Positions 2,906 to 26,371 of a DNA stretch of 64,000 nt are shown here, in pieces. The position numbers and the translations under genes were made by a program. Position 1 is the first letter of the stretch, and every line of letters starts with the position of its first letter. Under the pieces are notes generated by a model. The model was given only the letters and a program-made list of their open reading frames with translations. It was not told the DNA's origin and did not search any database. This stretch comes from Candidatus Beckwithbacteria bacterium GW2011_GWC1_49_16 (lineage in GTDB: Bacteria; Patescibacteriota; Microgenomatia; UBA1400; CG1-02-47-37). The DNA is taken from assembly GCA_001029675.1 (NCBI GenBank), contig CP011210.1, forward strand, positions 192,193 through 256,192, in the 5' to 3' direction.

Positions 2906-3970
2906 TTATTTCTTTTTAAAGAATTCTGTCAAGGATGATTTCCTCATAAAATTCCTACCAAAAAGGTAGAAGTTAATGATCAAAAACAGCGCCAGCAGGG
3001 CTTTGTAGGGTAGGACTAGAAACTTGATGGTAGCGGAAACGGTGTTGGTGGTATCGGCCGGGGTAATTTGGGCGGTGGCGGAGTAGAGGCCCAAAGGGAA
3101 AAGGGGATTCCAACCAACAACACACCCGGTGTGTAAGTTTCTTTCACACCGGGTGTGTTCGAGTGAAGTAAGCGATCTGGTGGAGCCGGCCAAAATGTTG
3201 TCTTCACGCAGAGGCAAGACGGCGCTTGACTGACCAAACATGTTGGTGACGGTGATTGAACCGACGGCTTTGAGTTTGGTTTGGGAGGTGTTTTTGACCC
3301 GGAGGGTAAAGCCGATGGGGTCGAAAGAATCCAATAAGGAGAGTCCTCGAAGGGAACCTTCAAGGACTCTCCTTGAAGGTCTGAACTCTTCTATTTTGGC
3401 GTTTCTGACCGGTTGGCCGTCGCGGGAAACGGTCAGCAGGATATTGGCGCCGATAGCGGCGCGGGAGAGGCTGCCCGAGCCGCCGATTAGGCCCTCGGTG
3501 TCGGAGTCGAAAAGAAAGGTTAAGGAGTGATCGGCGTCGGCAGCGGTTTCCGGGACGCGGATTTTCAAAACCAGCTCCTGGGTGGCGCCGGCGGCAAGCG
3601 CAAAGCGGGCGGGAAGATCAAGGTCGGCGTTTTGCAGGGAGAAATAGCTCACTGTCGGAGAAACTTCATTGGGGAGGACTTCGACGTGGCCGAGCTCGTC
3701 AGCCGGGCGGAAAGGGACGATCCTGGCGGTAATGTTGGTGTCGTCGCCCATATTTTTCAAGCGGTAAACTTGGGTGATGGCGGTGCCGGGTTTGATGGTG
3801 ACTTCCAAAAGCGGCGGCCAGATGGAAAGAGAGGTGGTTTGCCCGTAAGCGGCTGGCGCTGCGTAAACCGTAAACAGTAAACCGTAAACGGTAATTATCA
3901 GAGGTAAAAATAAATTACCGAATGTCGTTTTTAATGTTCCTCCATTAAGGTCCGACCTTTTTGTAGGCAT
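2906..3970 (-). CDS. cell-surface protein, paralog of 437..1429 (signal peptide plus C-terminal TM anchor)
   Basis: The 2906..4162 ORF is probably initiated at the internal Met (MPTKRSDL...) at 3970, giving signal peptide LPLIITVYGLLFTVYAAPAAYG. LEVTIKPGTAITQVYRLKN resembles LEVEALPGATLQETLKVSN of the paralog. C-terminal TM plus RKSSLTEFFKKK tail. Contains in-frame palindromic element at 3121..3157. Confidence 0.5.
   Translation of the reverse strand: MPTKRSDLNGGTLKTTFGNLFLPLIITVYGLLFTVYAAPAAYGQTTSLSIWPPLLEVTIKPGTAITQVYRLKNMGDDTNITARIVPFRPADELGHVEVLPNEVSPTVSYFSLQNADLDLPARFALAAGATQELVLKIRVPETAADADHSLTFLFDSDTEGLIGGSGSLSRAAIGANILLTVSRDGQPVRNAKIEEFRPSRRVLEGSLRGLSLLDSFDPIGFTLRVKNTSQTKLKAVGSITVTNMFGQSSAVLPLREDNILAGSTRSLTSLEHTRCERNLHTGCVVGWNPLFPLGLYSATAQITPADTTNTVSATIKFLVLPYKALLALFLIINFYLFGRNFMRKSSLTEFFKKK
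3121..3157. repeat. palindromic element variant CACACCCGGTGTG-taagtttcttt-CACACCGGGTGTG, in-frame in surface-protein gene
   Basis: Exact inverted 13-mers. Read on the minus strand as HTRCERNLHTGCV. Confidence 0.9.
3863..3897. repeat. (GTAAACN)x5 heptamer tandem repeat in signal-peptide-coding region
   Basis: gtaaacc gtaaaca gtaaacc gtaaacg gtaatta. Encodes ITVYGLLFTVY. Confidence 0.8.
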
Positions 3971-3971
3971 A

Positions 3972-4694
3972 TTAATAGCCGGGGGTGGCGATAAAAGTGA
4001 CGGCATTTTCGTAGTCGCCGGCGGCTTGGGTGGCGGAAATATTAACTTTGTAAGTGGCGGTGGCGCTGCGGTCTTGGCCGACGTTGGCACTCGACATGAC
4101 AATTTGGGCGGTTTCGGCGGCAGAAGCATCGGCGAACTGCCTGAAGTAAGTAGAGTTGACAAAGTCGGCCGGAATGTCGTTACCGCTCATGTTGAAGCCA
4201 AAGCCGAAGTTGGCGCTATTGGTCCAGACGGCAGCGGTGGTTTCGTCGCAAGCGGTGTCGCAGGTGGTGTCAGGGATGGTGGTAGATGAGGTTTGCAGTT
4301 TCAAGGGGTGGTTGGCAAAGGCAGCGACCGAGTAGCCGCCCGCCCCGCCGGCAGAGACGGTTAGGGTGTTGGTTTGGGTAGAGAAGCTAGACGGGGTCAA
4401 AGCGCCAAAGTCGATGGACAGATCAGAGATGGTAAAGGCAAAAGCGATGATGGTTTTGATATAGGGGAAGCCAGCGCGGACGATGTAGCCGGTCGAATCG
4501 TATTGCCCCGGGGCGGTTTGGCCGACGGTGTCCAAAATATTGTAGTTATTCGAGGATTTACTGCCAGAAGTCATGTTGAGGTTGGTAAACTGGAGCTCAT
4601 AAGAGTCAGAAGACATGTTTTCGGCCCTGGCGGGCGTAAACCGTAATCCGTAAACCGTAATCAGTAAAATCAGACTCAAAAGCAGTTTTTTCAT
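3972..4694 (-). CDS. secreted surface protein (paralog of 1433..2896, C-terminal AGDYENAVTF motif)
   Basis: Signal peptide MKKLLLSLILLITVYGL. C-terminus AAGDYENAVTFIATPGY matches the 487-aa protein. Confidence 0.5.
   Translation of the reverse strand: MKKLLLSLILLITVYGLRFTPARAENMSSDSYELQFTNLNMTSGSKSSNNYNILDTVGQTAPGQYDSTGYIVRAGFPYIKTIIAFAFTISDLSIDFGALTPSSFSTQTNTLTVSAGGAGGYSVAAFANHPLKLQTSSTTIPDTTCDTACDETTAAVWTNSANFGFGFNMSGNDIPADFVNSTYFRQFADASAAETAQIVMSSANVGQDRSATATYKVNISATQAAGDYENAVTFIATPGY
4635..4669. repeat. (CGTAAWC)x4-5 heptamer tandem repeat in signal-peptide-coding region
   Basis: cgtaaac cgtaatc cgtaaac cgtaatc agtaaaa. Encodes ITVYGLRFTP. Confidence 0.8.
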
Positions 4695-5425
4695 TCGTCG
4701 GTCGCTTGGTCGATGGTTTGCTGCAACTTTTTGCCTGATTGGGCCAGCTTCTTGAGGTCTTGGTAGAGTTGGTTTAATTTTTCTCTTTGGTGATAAGGGA
4801 TACGGGATAGGTTAGTCGTAAGTTGAGAAACGATATCCATTGCTTGATCTATTTTGTTATGGAATTCTATAGAAAGCCAGATTAAAGTAGTTGATTCTTC
4901 GTCACTGATGGTTTGATTGAGGATTTTAGCTTGATGTTTGAGGACTTTTATTCTATTTTTTCCTTCTAGCAGTCTTATATATTGAGTGCCAAAGATAAGC
5001 GCCAGAGGAGCCATGAATATGAGAGAAAAGAGGTTGACCAGCTGGGAGTTGGTCAAAGGGGCCGAATTTATCAGAAAGAAGCCTACGAGTGCTAAAGAAG
5101 TGATGAAGCTTACTAAGGGCATGAGGAAGAGGCTCAAGCCGAAGAGGAGAAGGTAAAGTAAGAACAGAAGGGGGGAGTCGAGGCCGCCGGTGGACAAAAC
5201 CAGCAGCAAGGTCAAAATAGTGTAGATAATAGCTTTTGATATGTTTTGATATTTTATGTTAGATTTATGATGGCGCAGGAGCAGGTCGTGAAATAGATAA
5301 AACAGGATCAACAGGGCAGTCAGTTGCAAGGAAAACTTGGACAGTTCAGGATTTTCCCGCCAATAGAAAGAAAAAGCCACGGCGAAGATTAATAAAAGCG
5401 AGTTTAACAGTACGGGCAGGGTCAT
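4691..5425 (-). CDS. hypothetical membrane protein with C-terminal coiled-coil
   Basis: Four or more N-terminal hydrophobic helices followed by a charged helical C-terminus. Confidence 0.4.
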   Translation of the reverse strand: MTLPVLLNSLLLIFAVAFSFYWRENPELSKFSLQLTALLILFYLFHDLLLRHHKSNIKYQNISKAIIYTILTLLLVLSTGGLDSPLLFLLYLLLFGLSLFLMPLVSFITSLALVGFFLINSAPLTNSQLVNLFSLIFMAPLALIFGTQYIRLLEGKNRIKVLKHQAKILNQTISDEESTTLIWLSIEFHNKIDQAMDIVSQLTTNLSRIPYHQREKLNQLYQDLKKLAQSGKKLQQTIDQATDE

Positions 5426-10310: not shown

Positions 10311-11328
10311 ATTTGTCCAGGATGATATAGACGACCATGGCAAAGAAAGCCGAGGCGGGAATGGTTAAAAACCAAGCCAGAACGATTCTTCTGGCCGTGC
10401 CCCAGCTGACGGCACGATTGGCCCGGGTGGCGCCGACCCCCATGATCGAGCCGGAGATAGCGTGGGTGGTTGAAACCGGAAAACCCATAAAGCTTGAGGC
10501 AGCCAGCACTATGGCGCTGCCGGTTTCGGCGGCAAAACCCTGGTAGGGCCGCAGTTTGGTAATTTTTTTGGCCATGGTTTTGACGATCTTCCAGCCGCCG
10601 AGTAAAGTGCCCAAGGCAATAGTTAAGTTGACGCTGATAATCACCCAAAGGGGAACTTGAAAGTGAGTCAGAAAGCCTTGCTGGACCAAAAGAATGGTTA
10701 ATATCCCCATGACTTTCTGGCCGTCGTTTGAGCCGTGGGTGACGGAAAAGAAAAAGGAGGAGAAAATTTGTAACAGGCGAAAATAAGGGTTGATTTTGAC
10801 GGTAGAGAAACGGATAAACAAGCGGATAATCAGAGCGATAAACAGAAAAGTAAAGCTAAAAGAGATAACCGGCGAGGCGACCATGGGGATGATTACTTTG
10901 TTCCAAACGCCGATGAGGTTGACCGGCGACCAGCTTCTGGCAGCCGTGGCGCCGGCGCCGACCAGACCGCCGATCAAAACGTGGGATTCGGATATGGGCA
11001 AACCCCAGAACCAGGTGGCCACATCAAAAATCAAGCCGCCGATCAACGCCGCCAGGATGAGTTTGTAGCTGATGATGTTAGGGTCAATAATGCCTTGACC
11101 GATGGTGGCGGCCACAGCCGTGCCTAAAAGAACACCCATGAAGTTGCCCAACGCCGAGAGCATTACCGCTTGTCCGGGTTTTAAAACCCGGGTGGCGACG
11201 ATGGTGGCGATGGCGTTGGCCGCGTCAGAAAAGCCGTTCCAAAAAGCAAAAAAAAGACTCACCGCCAGGGTAAGAATAAACAACCCCATCAAAGGTTTTT
11301 CATGACAACTTTTTGAGTCAGGTTGCAA
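10303..11328 (-). CDS. inorganic phosphate transporter, PiT family
   Basis: Polytopic membrane protein with GFSDAANAIATIV and GSNDGQKVMGI motifs typical of PiT (PF01384). Confidence 0.85.
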   Translation of the reverse strand: MQPDSKSCHEKPLMGLFILTLAVSLFFAFWNGFSDAANAIATIVATRVLKPGQAVMLSALGNFMGVLLGTAVAATIGQGIIDPNIISYKLILAALIGGLIFDVATWFWGLPISESHVLIGGLVGAGATAARSWSPVNLIGVWNKVIIPMVASPVISFSFTFLFIALIIRLFIRFSTVKINPYFRLLQIFSSFFFSVTHGSNDGQKVMGILTILLVQQGFLTHFQVPLWVIISVNLTIALGTLLGGWKIVKTMAKKITKLRPYQGFAAETGSAIVLAASSFMGFPVSTTHAISGSIMGVGATRANRAVSWGTARRIVLAWFLTIPASAFFAMVVYIILDKFI

Positions 11329-11915
11329 AACTCTTCGATTTTGTCAGTGAGTGTCTCCAGGATCTCAAAAACTTCTTTTTTCTGGATGAGGCTTTTTATA
11401 TTTTTCTCCCGCATCAGTTGTTCGAGGCAGTCTAAAAGCAGGTTGTCGGCCTGGTTTTCCAGGCGGTGGATTTTTCTGGCGTGGGAGCGCATCTCTTTCT
11501 GGCTCATTTGTCTGATTTTGCCCACCAGCTTTTGCGATTCCTGGATCATAGCGTTAATAATTTGGGTGAACTGTTTAATTTTTAAGTTTTGACCGTCGAG
11601 CTTGTAAATGTTGATTCTTCTGGCTGAGGCTTGAACCAGGTCAATCAGGTCGTCGGCGGAGATGATTAGGTTGCCCAGGTCTTCGTGGTCGACAGGGGTG
11701 ATAAAGGTCTGGTTTAACTTGTCAAAAACGTCGGTGATGATGTTGTCGGCCTGGCTTTCCAGGTTTTCGATGAGGCGAACGGTTTTAGGGGAGAAGGCGC
11801 CTTTTTGTAAAGAATGATGGAGGAGGGCGGAGGCTTTGACCACCAGGTTGATGTGCTCGTCCAAAAGCTCAAAAAAAACTTTGTCTTGGGGGATGAGCCA
11901 GTCTTTGAGTTTCAT
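11289..11915 (-). CDS. DUF47 / PhoU-like phosphate transport regulator (Pit accessory protein)
   Basis: Immediately upstream of and overlapping the PiT gene. N-terminus MKLKDWLIPQDKVFFELL is typical of the TIGR00153 family. Confidence 0.8.
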   Translation of the reverse strand: MKLKDWLIPQDKVFFELLDEHINLVVKASALLHHSLQKGAFSPKTVRLIENLESQADNIITDVFDKLNQTFITPVDHEDLGNLIISADDLIDLVQASARRINIYKLDGQNLKIKQFTQIINAMIQESQKLVGKIRQMSQKEMRSHARKIHRLENQADNLLLDCLEQLMREKNIKSLIQKKEVFEILETLTDKIEEFCNLTQKVVMKNL

Positions 11916-22296: not shown

Positions 22297-22767
22297 ATGG
22301 CCAAAGAGCAGTCGGTAGTTTTAGTTAAACCGGACGGGTTACAGCGGGGGTTGTTGGGCGAGATGGTCAGCCGGTTTGAGAGGAAGGGGTTGAAGTTGGT
22401 GGCAGTCAAGATGATGAGACTAACGGATGAGATTTTGGATCATTGGTACGAGCATCACAAGGACAAGGATTTTTTTGACGAGCTTAAATCTTTCATGAAG
22501 TCGGCGCCGATTGTGGCCATGCTGTGGCAGGGGGTGGAGGCGGTGGCGGTGGTGAGAAAGCTTTGCGGCACTACTTCGGGCCGTGAGGCCGAGGCCGGTT
22601 CGATCAGAGGCGATTTTTCCATCAGCCAACAATTGAATCTGATCCACGCGTCAGACAGCGTCGATAATGCCGACAGGGAAAGAAAACTTATTTTCAAAGA
22701 CGGCGAGATAATCGATTGGGAAAGCGCGGCCGAGGCTTTGGTTTATTCGGCGGCAGAGAGAAGTTAA
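22297..22767 (+). CDS. ndk: nucleoside diphosphate kinase
   Basis: SVVLVKPDG...RGDFSIS...NLIHASD matches the NDK catalytic His motif. Confidence 0.95.
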   Translation: MAKEQSVVLVKPDGLQRGLLGEMVSRFERKGLKLVAVKMMRLTDEILDHWYEHHKDKDFFDELKSFMKSAPIVAMLWQGVEAVAVVRKLCGTTSGREAEAGSIRGDFSISQQLNLIHASDSVDNADRERKLIFKDGEIIDWESAAEALVYSAAERS

Positions 22768-23138
22768 AGGTTTTTAAGAAAGTTTTTGATTCTGTTTCTG
22801 TCTTCGTTTGGTTTGTTCCCTTTATAGTATATCTCAATAAAAATAATCTTAGAGTTTGATTTGAGAAAGGCGTAGATGACTCTTAGTCCACTTCTTGAGC
22901 CTTTACCAAAGAGGGATTTACAGGCAAATTTCTTGATTTTACAGATATCAACTTTCTGGCTACAAAGTTCTGGAATTGGGAAAATGCTGCGGTTATCTGT
23001 GTTTTGAAGGTAAAGAAGTTCTATCGTGGTCTTTTTGACAAGGTTAAAGTCTTCGTGAAGGGTTCTTAAGCGTTTCTTTAGCTTCTTAAAATCCTTTTTA
23101 AATTCTGGAGTCTGTTCATAGATTAGATTTATCGTCAT
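22764..23138 (-). CDS. putative toxin (RelE/ParE-like fold) partnered with the Panacea-domain antitoxin
   Basis: 124 aa overlapping the upstream HTH-DUF4065 gene by ~23 nt. Pattern GKGSRSGLRVIYAF...IIFIEIYYKGNK resembles RelE/ParE toxins. Confidence 0.45.
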   Translation of the reverse strand: MTINLIYEQTPEFKKDFKKLKKRLRTLHEDFNLVKKTTIELLYLQNTDNRSIFPIPELCSQKVDICKIKKFACKSLFGKGSRSGLRVIYAFLKSNSKIIFIEIYYKGNKPNEDRNRIKNFLKNL

Positions 23139-23874
23139 AGCTTCTTACAGACGTTTCATCGGTGCGATAAAAGACTGCTTCGTATTCTATTTGTTGGCCT
23201 TGTTTGGCGGTAATAAAGGGAACATCTTTATGAGAGTAGACGCTTAAGTCGTTGGCGTTTTTATCCGAGAGCCTATTTAAGACTTCGTCGATGTGTTTGA
23301 TTTCTCTGGCAGTGAGTAAGTTGATATTTGGGGAACGATTAGGCAGATACTTCTTTTGATCGTACTGGAAGTATTTGCTTTTAACTTGGACGATTTCTTT
23401 TTTCTTTTCCATGTCCTGAATAACTTGGTCGAACATTGCCGGGGTGGGACCATGGTGGTTTTTAACATAAGCTGCCCCTATCAATTGCTCTTCAAATTTT
23501 TCGTAAAAGTCAAAGTCGATAAAGTAGAGTAGCTTGTAGATAACGGTTTTACCTACGTTACGCTTGGCGCCGACTTTTTCCAGGACGTAAAGCAAAACCT
23601 CTTTGAACTTGTCCACTTTTTCTTGAGGAATACTGATGCGGATGGTGTCATTTTTAATGAGAGGTTTTTTAGCTTTGGTGATCATAACTGTGATTTTAGG
23701 AAGATTAAGTATTGACTCAAGTCTTTTTAACTCTTTCAGGGTGAGTTCCCGAGAACCCTTTTCTACTAATATGTATGTCGGGCGAGAGATACCTAGTTTT
23801 TTAGCCAGGTAGGCTTGAGATAAACCTAGTTCTGTCCGTTTCTTTCTGATGATGCTTTCAAGAGATTGAACCAT
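23116..23874 (-). CDS. HTH_XRE plus Panacea (DUF4065) domain antitoxin-like protein
   Basis: N-terminus LGLSQAYLAKKLGISRPTYILVEKG is an XRE HTH. C-terminus KTVIYKLLYFIDFDFYEKFEEQLIGAAYVKNHHGPTPAMF matches the DUF4065/Panacea signature (KLxKLLY...W.HGPV). Confidence 0.6.
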   Translation of the reverse strand: MVQSLESIIRKKRTELGLSQAYLAKKLGISRPTYILVEKGSRELTLKELKRLESILNLPKITVMITKAKKPLIKNDTIRISIPQEKVDKFKEVLLYVLEKVGAKRNVGKTVIYKLLYFIDFDFYEKFEEQLIGAAYVKNHHGPTPAMFDQVIQDMEKKKEIVQVKSKYFQYDQKKYLPNRSPNINLLTAREIKHIDEVLNRLSDKNANDLSVYSHKDVPFITAKQGQQIEYEAVFYRTDETSVRSYDDKSNL

Positions 23875-23945
23875 AAACCGCTACCAGTTTAGCAGGTGTA
23901 AAGAATTTTTGTCAAGTCTTAGAGTAAGAAATGTTGACACAGAAC

Positions 23946-24080
23946 TTACTTTTTATTGACGTATTTCCACAGGGTCATGATGGCCAGAACCAAAAGGATT
24001 AGGACTAGGATGTAGATGAGCCAGCCGAAAAACATGACAGAGCCGCCTCCCCAACCGTTCATCATTTGATATCCCCACAT
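23946..24080 (-). CDS. small hydrophobic peptide (44 aa) with strong SD
   Basis: GGAGGTGA lies 7 nt upstream of the ATG. Product is MWGYQMMNGWGGGSVMFFGWLIYILVLILLVLAIMTLWKYVNKK. Confidence 0.3.
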   Translation of the reverse strand: MWGYQMMNGWGGGSVMFFGWLIYILVLILLVLAIMTLWKYVNKK

Positions 24081-24539
24081 TTTGCCTCACCTCCTTTAAC
24101 AAGAGAGTTTTTAACTTGAAGCGTGATCTTTAAGTTTTTTTCGTAAAGTCTTTATCTCGTTGATAATCTCATCCCTGATTTCATAGAGTTCATCCTGGAA
24201 AGATTTAGAGTTTTCATTTAAGCCTTGATTCGTGACTAACTTGTCTGATTTGATCATTACGTTATTATTGTTGGTGATTGACGAGTGGTTGTTAATTGGT
24301 CGGGGTGGCCCGCCTAAGGCGGGCGGCCTGTCGCCTAAGGCGACCGCTCTGCCAACTGATAATTTTTGCTTTAACCATTTTCTTCCTTGCCCAGACTTAA
24401 GTTGTCTTTCTCTTTTCTTAGTTTTGTATATTTAGATTGACCGGAATTATGTTCATGAATCCGCCTTTTAAGATTATTAGTATGTCCAATGTAATGTCTT
24501 TCATTTTTATAACTTTTAATGACGTAGACGTAATACATG

Positions 24540-24612
24540 TCGGAGAGCCGGGATTCGAACCCGGGACCTCGTCGTCCCGAACGACGCGCGCTACCAACTG
24601 CGCTACTCTCCG
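24540..24612 (-). tRNA. tRNA-Pro (anticodon CGG)
   Basis: Hand-folded cloverleaf: acceptor CGGAGAG/CTCTCCG, D-arm GCGCAGTTGGTAGCGC, anticodon loop TTCGGGA, T-arm CCGGG-TTCGAAT-CCCGG. No encoded CCA. Confidence 0.85.
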
Positions 24613-24680
24613 TAACCGGCGATTCGTCTAAGGCGGGCGACCGCGCTACTCCGCCTCAGGCGGACGCTACACCCCGTGGG

Positions 24681-24752
24681 TGCCCCCACCAGGAGTCGAA
24701 CCTGGATTAGAGGTTTAGGAAACCTCTGTTCTATCCATTAAACTATGGGAGC
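24681..24752 (-). tRNA. tRNA-Arg (anticodon CCU)
   Basis: Acceptor GCTCCCA/TGGGGGC, anticodon stem GAGGT/ACCTC with loop TTCCTAA, T-arm CCAGG-TTCGACT-CCTGG. Confidence 0.85.
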
Positions 24753-24808: not shown

Positions 24809-26371
24809 ATGATGGCAGAACGAGAAAAAAAACAGCAGCTTCATCCCGGTATGGTAATACATGCGGAAAAGTTGCTTGATGAAGCTGGAGCAAGAAATAA
24901 GAATTATAATGAATTACTGAATCAGGGACGAAGGCAAAAGATAGTTGAGTTTCTTGGAGAAGGAACTGTTTTTAACAACTACACTCAAGCATACATGGAG
25001 GCTTTTGTGGCAGCAGACGAAGTGTTAACCCTCGATCATGGTTTAGAGGGTTTAAAAGTGCTTCCGTCCTTGAAACGGGTAGCGTTGGTTTTTGGAGAAG
25101 ACTTGCCTCCACAGGAAGGAATTTTTAGGCGCCTAGAGGACATTATGTTTGACACTCAATTTTTTGCAGATAGGCATTATGATAAGAGAGAAATTGGGCA
25201 GGGTTTGAGCGGTTTACAGAAAATGATTGCCTTTTACTATAACGCCACGGAGGTAAAGTTGAGATTTATACCTATGGAAGAAAAACTGTATGATGATGCT
25301 TGGTTCACATATTTGGGTCAGATGTTAATAGAGCGAAGAATTTGGAATAACCTAGACAGTTTTAGGGGGGAAGACAGTTTTGAAACAATGGTTAACTTTC
25401 ATAAATACTACAAAGTTAACGCCTCTCATGTTTTTGCACACATTAGAAGAATTCCTAGTGGTAGATACTTAGAATTAAGCGCTAGAGATACGTCTGAACC
25501 AAGAGAGAGGGTGTTGTCTTTTCAAAGAGATGTGATTGATATCGAAGATTTACTAGAGGGAGAAGAAAATTTTTCTTTAGTCGATCTAGAAACGCTCGCG
25601 GAAAGATTATCGAAAAAGCATCAAACTATAATGGGGCAGCTTTTAGCTGGTCAAAGTCAAAAGATGCTTATAGAAGGTGGTTTTAAAAGAAGAGAAATTC
25701 AGTTAGCGACGTTTGAATTTGGCAAAGTGCTGGCAGAATTAGACGAGAAGTATAAAGGCTTGATAGTTGCTGAAAAGCAAAAACAAGCGAACATGAAAGA
25801 ATTATGGGAGAATTTGCATATGGCGACGAGATATCTAACCCTCAGAGAGTTTTTTAATCATGTTTCAAGGTTGGGTCAAAGAGAAAGGTTTGCAATGCTG
25901 AAAATGACTGGTTACTCCGACCCGGGAAAATCTCTAAAGGAATCGGCGCAGGCCCATGGATTTTCAGGAGAGTTAATTATAATGAGGGATTTTAGCAGCG
26001 CCGTAAAATCATTAACCGAATCAGTTTCTAAATATAAACTTATTGACGAAAATAGTTCTCTAAAGATCAATCCTAAAAAATTAGTAAGGGAATCAGAAAA
26101 TGTTAGATCTTTTAGGGTTGAAAAGGAGAGAGCTTTGAGGCCTGATGGACGGGGTAAAATAGTTGATAATATGATGTTATCCAGCGACGGCGAATTTATG
26201 AATTTATTGCCGTCTCATTTGCGCCGAACTTTTCTTTTGTTAATCGAACTAAACGATGATGGAGAATCATTGAAGCACAGTCGACAATCATTAATCAATA
26301 AATATGGATTGGGTTCAGGCAGATTGGATCGTCATATTGCTTCGATTAAAAGGGTGATTGAAGATTATTAA
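24809..26371 (+). CDS. hypothetical protein (520 aa, no recognisable domain)
   Basis: Long ORF adjacent to the tRNA pair. No signal peptide or TM. Confidence 0.45.
   Translation: MMAEREKKQQLHPGMVIHAEKLLDEAGARNKNYNELLNQGRRQKIVEFLGEGTVFNNYTQAYMEAFVAADEVLTLDHGLEGLKVLPSLKRVALVFGEDLPPQEGIFRRLEDIMFDTQFFADRHYDKREIGQGLSGLQKMIAFYYNATEVKLRFIPMEEKLYDDAWFTYLGQMLIERRIWNNLDSFRGEDSFETMVNFHKYYKVNASHVFAHIRRIPSGRYLELSARDTSEPRERVLSFQRDVIDIEDLLEGEENFSLVDLETLAERLSKKHQTIMGQLLAGQSQKMLIEGGFKRREIQLATFEFGKVLAELDEKYKGLIVAEKQKQANMKELWENLHMATRYLTLREFFNHVSRLGQRERFAMLKMTGYSDPGKSLKESAQAHGFSGELIIMRDFSSAVKSLTESVSKYKLIDENSSLKINPKKLVRESENVRSFRVEKERALRPDGRGKIVDNMMLSSDGEFMNLLPSHLRRTFLLLIELNDDGESLKHSRQSLINKYGLGSGRLDRHIASIKRVIEDY

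Follow-up and report, generated by a model that had tools for sequence, protein, structure and literature searches.

What occupies the interval between the nucleoside diphosphate kinase gene ndk and the tRNA-Pro/tRNA-Arg pair in a genome of Candidatus Beckwithbacteria (Microgenomates, candidate phyla radiation, or CPR; groundwater), and what do the GC-rich hairpins around these tRNA genes represent? The question was addressed in a 64-kb stretch of this genome, referred to here as the window, for which a first reading of the sequence (the original prediction) had described a toxin-antitoxin pair, a 44-amino-acid (aa) membrane peptide, two tRNA genes, and three hairpins as parts of a variable islet without an integrase. 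All of these features were recovered at the same coordinates by open reading frame (ORF) calls, ARAGORN, Rfam, and reading of the sequence. The toxin-antitoxin pair and the variable, integrase-free islet stood up to analysis, while the inclusion of the 44-aa peptide in the module and the meaning given to the hairpins did not. The interval from ndk to tRNA-Arg is probably a horizontally acquired patch of low G+C content that holds two unrelated things, a PanAT toxin-antitoxin cassette and the wreck of a GIY-YIG nuclease gene and a tRNA gene. The hairpins are the most interesting part of the locus, and their meaning differs from the att-site remnants that had been listed first among their possible identities. 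The features of the interval are as follows.

22297-22767, ndk, convergent to the gene for the 124-aa protein, with the stop codons of the two genes overlapping
22764-23138, minus strand, predicted PanT-type toxin of 124 aa with a RelE/ParE fold, closest to HigB-2 (fold model and Foldseek)
23116-23874, minus strand, helix-turn-helix (HTH)-Panacea (PanA) antitoxin of 252 aa (PF01381 and PF13274)
23886-23915, minus strand, promoter-like site of the toxin-antitoxin cassette, TTGACA-18-TAAACT with TG (consensus match at 10 of 12 positions)
23946-24080, minus strand, gene for the 44-aa peptide with a single transmembrane helix (ORF with a strong Shine-Dalgarno sequence)
24111-24257, minus strand, 48-aa ORF (ORF list; no family matches)
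24297-24359, minus strand, 3' part of a putative split tRNA-Pro-like pseudogene (reading of the sequence and cloverleaf reconstruction)
24371-24538, minus strand, truncated GIY-YIG nuclease gene of 55 aa (PF01541)
24539-24612, minus strand, intact tRNA-Pro(CGG) (ARAGORN; Rfam, 68.6 bits)
24613-24678, minus strand, Arg-Pro spacer of tRNA-Pro 5' pieces and hairpins (reading of the sequence, repeats D1 and D6)
24679-24752, minus strand, intact tRNA-Arg(CCT) (ARAGORN; Rfam, 64.7 bits)

On the minus strand the order from 5' to 3' is tRNA-Arg, a 66-nt spacer, tRNA-Pro, the GIY-YIG ORF, a GC-rich 63-nt stretch, and then the 48-aa, 44-aa, 252-aa, and 124-aa ORFs. The protein identical to the 124-aa toxin in NCBI bears the name Candidatus Beckwithbacteria, and the two tRNA genes that had been predicted on the minus strand were called by both ARAGORN and Rfam.

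The 252-aa protein contains an HTH_3 domain (PF01381, residues 9 to 59, E = 7e-13) and a SocA_Panacea domain (PF13274, residues 113 to 217, model positions 2 to 109 of 113) that scored 60.7 bits against a cutoff of 25.7, which bears out the combination of HTH and Panacea/DUF4065 read earlier from the sequence. Its gene comes first and overlaps that of the 124-aa protein by 23 nt. Just upstream of the antitoxin gene lies the region's best match to the promoter consensus, a TG-extended TTGACA-18-TAAACT bracketed by a TGTCAA...TTGACA inverted repeat, which may be a putative operator. In all seven other lineages looked up, including contigs labelled Azambacteria, Schekmanbacteria, and Pacearchaeota, a homologue of the toxin is located directly downstream of, and overlaps, an HTH_3 and SocA_Panacea gene of 259 to 264 aa, and the surrounding genes differ each time. 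The pair is therefore assigned to the PanAT type II toxin-antitoxin cassettes. In addition, the Panacea region (residues 57 to 223) weakly matched the NCBIfam model of the DarG antitoxin in its C-terminal part (model positions 137 to 300 of 338, E = 7e-4), which hints that the toxin-binding part of DarG is possibly related to Panacea.

The 124-aa protein is predicted to be a RelE/ParE-fold toxin closest to HigB-2, and it is the modelled fold rather than Pfam that supports the RelE/ParE-like character suggested for it earlier. The AlphaFold (AF2) model built from the family alignment has a mean predicted local distance difference test score (pLDDT) of 87.6 and a beta-alpha-alpha-beta4-alpha topology. 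In a Foldseek search of the PDB, the best 38 matches were all toxins of the RelE superfamily, with HigB2 first, followed by aRelE, HP0892, RelE, YafQ, and YoeB, and the top ten had probabilities of 0.99 to 1.0. Vibrio HigB-2 was also the only match of a single-sequence search of the PDB (E = 0.023), and this match, like that of the family profile given below, runs through the motif G-K-G-x-R-x-G-x-R-[VI]-I-Y. The toxin family is well conserved and comprises more than 584 homologue clusters, mostly from Patescibacteria, and eight residues are invariant in it (K67, K70, R86, Y89, E102, Y104, K106, and R116), a pattern that may fit a RelE-type active site. The PADLOC and PHROGs libraries contributed nothing for the toxin.

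Several results on the toxin weigh against this part of the reading. No Pfam or NCBIfam model matched the protein above its cutoff (NCBIfam RelE_StbE reached 13.3 bits against 27.9), the family profile again found HigB-2 alone in the PDB with an E value of 0.0024, a weak sequence link, and the TM-scores (template modelling scores) of the model in Foldseek are only 0.5 to 0.67. With the weak HigB-2 E value, these TM-scores, and the missing family match, the toxin may have either RNase or ParE-type activity. A gyrase poison of the ParE type, or another member of the RelE/ParE fold that is not a ribosome-dependent mRNA endonuclease, is nevertheless unlikely, since the nearest neighbors in structure and sequence (HigB2, aRelE, YafQ, RelE, and YoeB) are all mRNases, the model has a C-terminal helix after the sheet, and the eight invariant residues presumably suit a RelE-type site. 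What speaks for it is that the fold is common to ParE too, that no RelE-family hidden Markov model reached its cutoff, and that ParE-like partners of PanA have been reported (PMC8832971).

The bicistronic arrangement with its 23-nt overlap and an HTH antitoxin, the promoter-like site of its own, the predicted fold, and the conserved pairing are together typical of an autonomous type II module. The cassette would be self-contained, consisting of its own promoter-like site, the HTH-Panacea antitoxin, and the overlapping downstream RelE/ParE-fold toxin. Judging from what is known of these families, the toxin would cut mRNA on the ribosome, the Panacea domain would bind and neutralize the toxin, and the HTH domain would repress the promoter of the cassette, i.e., act in autoregulation.

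At the other end of the interval, the three hairpins read GCCCGCC-TAA-GGCGGGC, GTCGCC-TAA-GGCGAC, and TCCGCC-TCA-GGCGGA on the plus strand. Their motif, CGCCTNAGGCG, occurs three times in the window against 0.04 expected. All three copies are at this locus, and a genome-wide family of repetitive extragenic palindrome-like (REP-like) elements was rejected for the window on that account. The sequence around the hairpins is derived from tRNA, which the original prediction had missed together with the GIY-YIG ORF. On the minus strand, 24359-24297 reads 5' to 3' as TCAGTTGGCAGAGCG, a D-arm piece resembling that of the tRNA-Pro (repeat D5); GTCGCC-TTA-GGCGAC, a 15-nt hairpin replacing the 17-nt anticodon arm; AGGCC, a 5-nt variable loop; GCCCGCC-TTA-GGCGGGC, a 17-nt hairpin at the place of the T arm; and CACCCCG-A-CCA, the 3' strand of the acceptor with discriminator base and CCA. 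The spacer between tRNA-Arg and tRNA-Pro contains further pieces, as follows.

24676-24666, minus strand, CGGGGTGTAGC, 5' strand of the acceptor that pairs with the 3' strand given above, and start of the D stem
24664-24650, minus strand, hairpin TCCGCC-TGA-GGCGGA
24649-24640, minus strand, GTAGCGCGGT, a second tRNA-Pro 5' piece
24639-24616, minus strand, degenerate hairpin, with a fourth, degenerate copy of the motif at 24625-24639

The piece CGGGGTGTAGC is nearly identical to the 5' end of the tRNA-Pro of Woesebacteria. When 24666-24676 was joined to 24297-24359, a perfect cloverleaf (-42.8 kcal/mol) with a 7-bp acceptor stem was obtained, in which the anticodon and T arms are perfect 6- to 7-bp stems with 3-nt loops. 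It bears C1-G72/A73, which we take to be the signature of bacterial tRNA-Pro. ARAGORN rejects this cloverleaf because both major arms have 3-nt loops, and in the hairpin regions neither ARAGORN nor Rfam, even at E ≤ 10, called any tRNA beside the two known ones, in agreement with the earlier statement that the hairpins are not themselves tRNAs. The matches of the hairpins at E ≤ 10 in Rfam, e.g., PyrR205 at 18.9 bits, were discarded as being at chance level. A short tRNA intron was also considered and rejected, as the remainder of the tRNA is missing from the interrupted copies.

Between the pieces lies the 55-aa ORF, which matches the GIY-YIG domain (PF01541, E = 1.9e-11, 44.6 bits against a cutoff of 22.6) at model positions 1 to 49 of 78. 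Its full-length relatives have 79 to 95 aa, and the alignment shows that the C-terminal half is missing from it. The ORF is a gene remnant with an incomplete catalytic domain. Its G+C content is 29.8%, and among the GIY-YIG proteins it is closest (67 to 71% identical) to those of a group of loci with the GTCGCC hairpin. Only tRNA and rRNA models, and no intron RNA model, were found by Rfam in this region of the window and in 18 comparison loci with GIY-YIG genes. The ATG of the remnant is located 0 to 1 nt past the discriminator base of tRNA-Pro (window positions 24536-24540), without a Shine-Dalgarno sequence, and at many other loci the end of the GIY-YIG ORF overlaps the 5' end of a tRNA or sits 0 to 20 nt before it. 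Processing of the tRNA could set the ends of the mRNA, for example through a leaderless mRNA after RNase Z cleavage.

Read in this way, the hairpins appear to be the arms of a split tRNA-Pro-like pseudogene tied to the GIY-YIG gene remnant. A break in the D arm would have divided an older tRNA-Pro-like gene, between whose halves the live tRNA-Pro and the now truncated GIY-YIG gene are found, and the "CUAAGG" hairpins would be its anticodon- and T-arm positions, rewritten as perfect GC stems with 3-nt loops. Similar hairpins lie among the tRNA 5' pieces of the Arg-Pro spacer.

The chief competing explanation of the hairpins is that they end transcription of the tRNA operon or direct the processing of its RNA, their tRNA likeness and the link to GIY-YIG being incidental. 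They are indeed stable GC stems by tRNA genes, and 24290-24365 folds better than shuffled sequence (minus strand, z = -2.9; plus strand, z = -4.2), but four results make this explanation improbable. First, a terminator scan found no terminator-like site at 24296-24359 or 24613-24678 and no T-tract after any hairpin, which excludes intrinsic terminators. Second, shuffled versions of the Arg-Pro spacer fold as well as the spacer itself does on the tRNA strand (z = 0.08). Third, the same spacer in its pristine form, in Woesebacteria locus L008, has 7 nt and no hairpin (in L009 it holds a full GIY-YIG gene). Fourth, the same stems recur within partial tRNA copies by GIY-YIG genes at unrelated loci, and the type of hairpin tracks the GIY-YIG clade. 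Of the three identities offered originally, tRNA fragments thus came closest, terminators fail for want of a T-tract, and integrase att scars fare no better (see below).

The recurrence of this arrangement was followed in a comparison set of 80 metagenomic loci from a scan with a GIY-YIG alignment. Among the loci with full flanks, 33 of 66 have a co-oriented tRNA within 150 nt of the GIY-YIG ORF, and more than a dozen tRNA specificities are represented. An exact partial copy (at least 11 nt) of the adjacent tRNA was found in 13 of the 35 loci with an adjacent tRNA, typically as a 5' piece before the GIY-YIG ORF and a 3' piece after the intact tRNA. The density of perfect GC-rich hairpins with 3-nt loops is 0.66 per kb near GIY-YIG ORFs versus 0.113 per kb elsewhere. 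The module of the window, GAGCG-GTCGCC-N-GGCGAC-AGG, was found in seven other GIY-YIG loci. The order of a D-arm end, GTCGCC-N(2-5)-GGCGAC, and a variable loop occurs seven times near such ORFs and once elsewhere, again in a tRNA-like context. In four loci TCCGCC-NNN-GGCGGA and CCAGCC-NNN-GGCTGG form an adjacent pair with differing loops. The hairpin type follows the GIY-YIG clade, and loci that share a stem have proteins only 45 to 72% identical. The same picture was seen at the tRNA-Glu of L089, an Azambacteria locus. There a diverged 5' half precedes two hairpins, after which come an 82-aa GIY-YIG gene, an anticodon-arm copy with two hairpins placed exactly inside its loop, and then the intact tRNA-Glu. 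In the AT-rich L009, the GIY-YIG gene lies between TTCTGC-AAA-GCAGAA and GTTCTTC-TTT-GAAGAAC.

The recurrence of tRNAs, partial copies, and the same stems at GIY-YIG loci indicates that the hairpins of the window belong to a recurrent mosaic that has decayed here. Across CPR bacteria, such hairpins would be cognate companions of small GIY-YIG genes next to tRNA genes. They would be sites or structures on which the putative nuclease acts, and breaks at them may help to make the neighborhood a recombination hot-spot.

Four comparison loci have peculiar arrangements. In L112 (2759-2960), next to a GIY-YIG gene, an intact tRNA-Ile(TAT) appears to be nested in the anticodon loop of another tRNA-like sequence and is bracketed by an inverted repeat of about 17 nt, TCAAATGATTTTTCATT / AATGAAATCATTTGA. 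In L101, a GIY-YIG gene and a tRNA-Thr stand between two direct copies of a repeat of about 110 nt (2373-2500 and 2818-2930) that contains the hairpin GGTGTGC-GCA-GCACACC, and the whole looks like a duplicated or inserted cassette. In L150 (2306-2445), 40 nt from the 3' part of a tRNA-Cys (positions 34 to 73) are repeated exactly behind that tRNA, the classic footprint of an integrative element, and a GIY-YIG gene and a hairpin-bearing partial copy of tRNA-Ile share the locus. In L088/L089 (832-4375, Azambacteria), a PanA-toxin pair is located about 2 kb from the tRNA-Glu/GIY-YIG/hairpin mosaic. Such proximity was seen at two of eight PanA-toxin loci, too few for an association.

The slot that holds the cassette is variable. 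The cassette (22768-23945) has a G+C content of 37.7%, compared with 49.8% in the window, and falls in the lowest 0.5% of windows of the same length. Six assemblies of the same species have the identical arrangement. One of the six, L001 (JGI Ga0103680_10000082), contains past a 100-N scaffold gap a second version of the locus (10376-11361), referred to as allele B. In this allele the 48-aa region is kept for its first 66 nt and then interrupted by an 84-nt deletion, after which come a gene for a 45-aa peptide, an RHH_1 antitoxin, and a YafQ/RelE-like toxin abutting ndk. Its peptide-gene region is 94% identical to that of the window; homology then stops at the stop codon of the peptide gene and restarts in the last codon of ndk, which itself differs (AAERG versus AAERS). 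The cassette would occupy a slot bounded by the stop codons of the 44-aa peptide gene and ndk, and in different strains and species this slot is filled by other toxin-antitoxin pairs.

An NDK-based scan of genome contigs found no close relative (best, 62% identical) and provided the loci for a comparison of synteny with Woesebacteria. In these distant Microgenomates the order M16 peptidase, ndk, tRNA-Pro(CGG), and tRNA-Arg(CCT) is kept, and the filling differs. In L008 a 161-aa ORF occupies the slot, with tRNA-Pro and tRNA-Arg 7 nt apart. In L009 (8534-9765) the slot between ndk and tRNA-Pro holds a type IV pair of an AbiEi-like gene and AbiEii (PF08843, E = 2.4e-17), and a full GIY-YIG gene of 95 aa stands between tRNA-Pro and tRNA-Arg. 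In L010 (Microgenomates, 3565-5192) the same tRNA pair draws other cargo, namely, a thymidine kinase gene between the two tRNAs and an IS200-like Y1 transposase (PF01797) just past tRNA-Arg. No integrase was found among the Pfam matches of the genes within about 10 kb on either side of the window locus. Both the differing fillings and this result support the view of a variable tRNA-adjacent islet without an integrase.

The 520-aa ORF that adjoins tRNA-Arg (24809-26371, plus strand) is a near-orphan. A word-index search returned the protein itself alone, a full HMMER search of 1.84 billion representatives gave 12 weak relatives of 21 to 34% identity, and no Pfam, NCBIfam, PADLOC, or PHROG match was obtained. 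Its G+C content of 38.1% is within the lowest 0.3% of windows of the same length, so it is probably part of the same foreign patch.

Two small ORFs lie between the cassette and the tRNA debris. The 48-aa ORF (24111-24257), which had not been listed originally, has no family match in Pfam or NCBIfam and has lost 84 interior nt in allele B, where 18 codons are left; gutted in this way, it is probably not a gene. The 44-aa peptide gene, 72 nt upstream of the antitoxin gene on the same strand, has GGAGGTG 7 to 8 nt upstream of its ATG and encodes one transmembrane helix. The 45-aa version in allele B differs by an in-frame 3-nt indel, three synonymous changes, and three conservative changes. It seems quite improbable that this peptide is a functional third component of the PanA pair, such as a type I-like membrane toxin or a regulator. 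The strong Shine-Dalgarno sequence, the transmembrane helix, the position upstream on the cassette strand, and the retention of the gene in both alleles with an in-frame indel would agree with such a role, but in allele B the gene precedes another toxin-antitoxin pair, the promoter-like site of the cassette lies downstream of the peptide gene, a homologue search found none beyond the species, and the peptide is absent upstream of the PanA pair in six other lineages. The small ORFs upstream of PanA in L087, L089, and L090 were considered as possible relatives and ruled out as unrelated. Given the lack of outside homologues, the absence at other PanA loci, and the different pair in allele B, the peptide is local context and not a component of the module in which it had been included.

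It is hardly credible that an island inserted by an integrase brought in the toxin-antitoxin genes and left the tRNA fragments and hairpins behind as scars of its att sites. A copy of the tRNA 3' end, CACCCCGACCA, is indeed found at the border of the low-G+C patch that faces the tRNA genes, and a classic duplication of a tRNA 3' half is present at one comparison locus (the tRNA-Cys of L150), but no integrase occurs within about 10 kb, the fragments include 5' pieces and rewritten arms unlike a simple 3'-end direct repeat, and the alternative toxin-antitoxin allele was exchanged between the stop codons of the peptide gene and ndk, with the boundaries of the variable cassette at gene stop codons and not at the tRNA pieces.

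It is possible, although still doubtful, that the small CPR GIY-YIG genes (about 80 to 95 aa) represent an undescribed class of mobile elements that split tRNA genes, rewrite their arms, and open cargo slots without an integrase. In such elements, a resident tRNA gene of any of many specificities would be split, with an intact copy kept or brought along. The arms of the broken copy would become clade-specific, perfect GC hairpins of 3-nt loops serving as sites of a structure-specific nuclease, e.g., as cruciforms, and the breaks made by the nuclease would turn tRNA neighborhoods into slots that exchange toxin-antitoxin genes and other cargo without an integrase. The window would then hold a decayed example with a cargo slot that is still active.

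The interpretation of the tRNA side and of the slot also has points against it. The GIY-YIG gene is truncated, so nothing in the genome now depends on it, and the 11-nt 5' piece used for the cloverleaf is short. The 80 comparison loci were picked by similarity to the GIY-YIG protein of the window and are not phylogenetically independent, and the remaining half of the GIY-YIG loci have no adjacent tRNA. Across the 100-N gap, allele B may come from a co-existing strain whose sequence was merged into the scaffold, or the two versions may truly stand in tandem.

The mosaic could explain how tRNA neighborhoods in CPR genomes turn into integrase-free hot-spots, and also the GC-rich debris by tRNA genes that gene callers and tRNA finders leave over. 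If the putative nuclease truly acts on the palindromes of the mosaic, it would be a minimal structure-guided homing system. No description of a GIY-YIG/tRNA mosaic in CPR bacteria was found in the literature, the coverage of which was incomplete, so that this is absence of evidence only. The cassette, in turn, brings into the Panacea network a widespread toxin family for which Pfam has no model and whose more than 584 clusters are mostly from Patescibacteria, in a pairing that is strictly conserved in small-genome CPR bacteria, which themselves are not tractable.

Among known systems, the cassette is closest to those of the PanAT survey, which records 343 HTH-bearing PanAs and putative PanT groups, e.g., T14, with HigB-2 as the best HHpred match (Kurata et al. 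2022; PMC8832971). Since both HTH-bearing PanAs and HigB-2-like partners have already been catalogued, the cassette belongs to a recorded kind, and the pair is ordinary in kind and has the appearance of a real one. Shared features are a Panacea antitoxin adjoining and overlapping a small toxin, an N-terminal HTH, and a RelE/HigB-2-like toxin fold. In contrast to the surveyed systems, the host here belongs to the CPR (none of the lineage names searched for occurs in the supplementary files consulted), and the toxin family has no Pfam model. HigB-2 of Vibrio cholerae (HigBA2; PDB 5ja8, 5ja9, and 8a0x) is the best structural and sequence neighbor of the toxin, and the two have in common the motif G-[KR]-G-x-[KR]-[SG]-G-x-R-[VI]-I-Y in the third predicted strand. 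Unlike in HigBA2, the antitoxin here is HTH-Panacea rather than HigA2 and its gene comes first, and the toxins are about 18% identical.

The tRNA side of the locus resembles tyrosine-integrase tRNA islands in its variable, compositionally foreign cargo by tRNA genes and its partial tRNA copies, and differs from them in having no integrase, no simple 3'-end direct repeat, and exchange at gene stop codons. Of the described systems, phage T4 SegB and GIY-YIG genes of CPR rRNA insertions come nearest to the mosaic. T4 SegB is a free-standing GIY-YIG homing endonuclease within a tRNA gene cluster (PMC2330249) and likewise has a gene among tRNA genes and tRNA-region DNA as its presumed target. Unlike SegB, the putative CPR nucleases are chromosomal, have 79 to 95 aa, little above the 78 positions of the Pfam catalytic-domain model, and are encoded beside many different tRNA species, with partial tRNA copies and GC hairpins of 3-nt loops. 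GIY-YIG genes also occur in non-intron insertions of CPR rRNA genes (PMC11270868), which share with the present loci the phylum-level host group and the presence of GIY-YIG ORFs in structured-RNA genes without a group I or II intron. In contrast to those insertions, the mosaic affects tRNA genes, and beside the disrupted tRNA an intact copy is kept.

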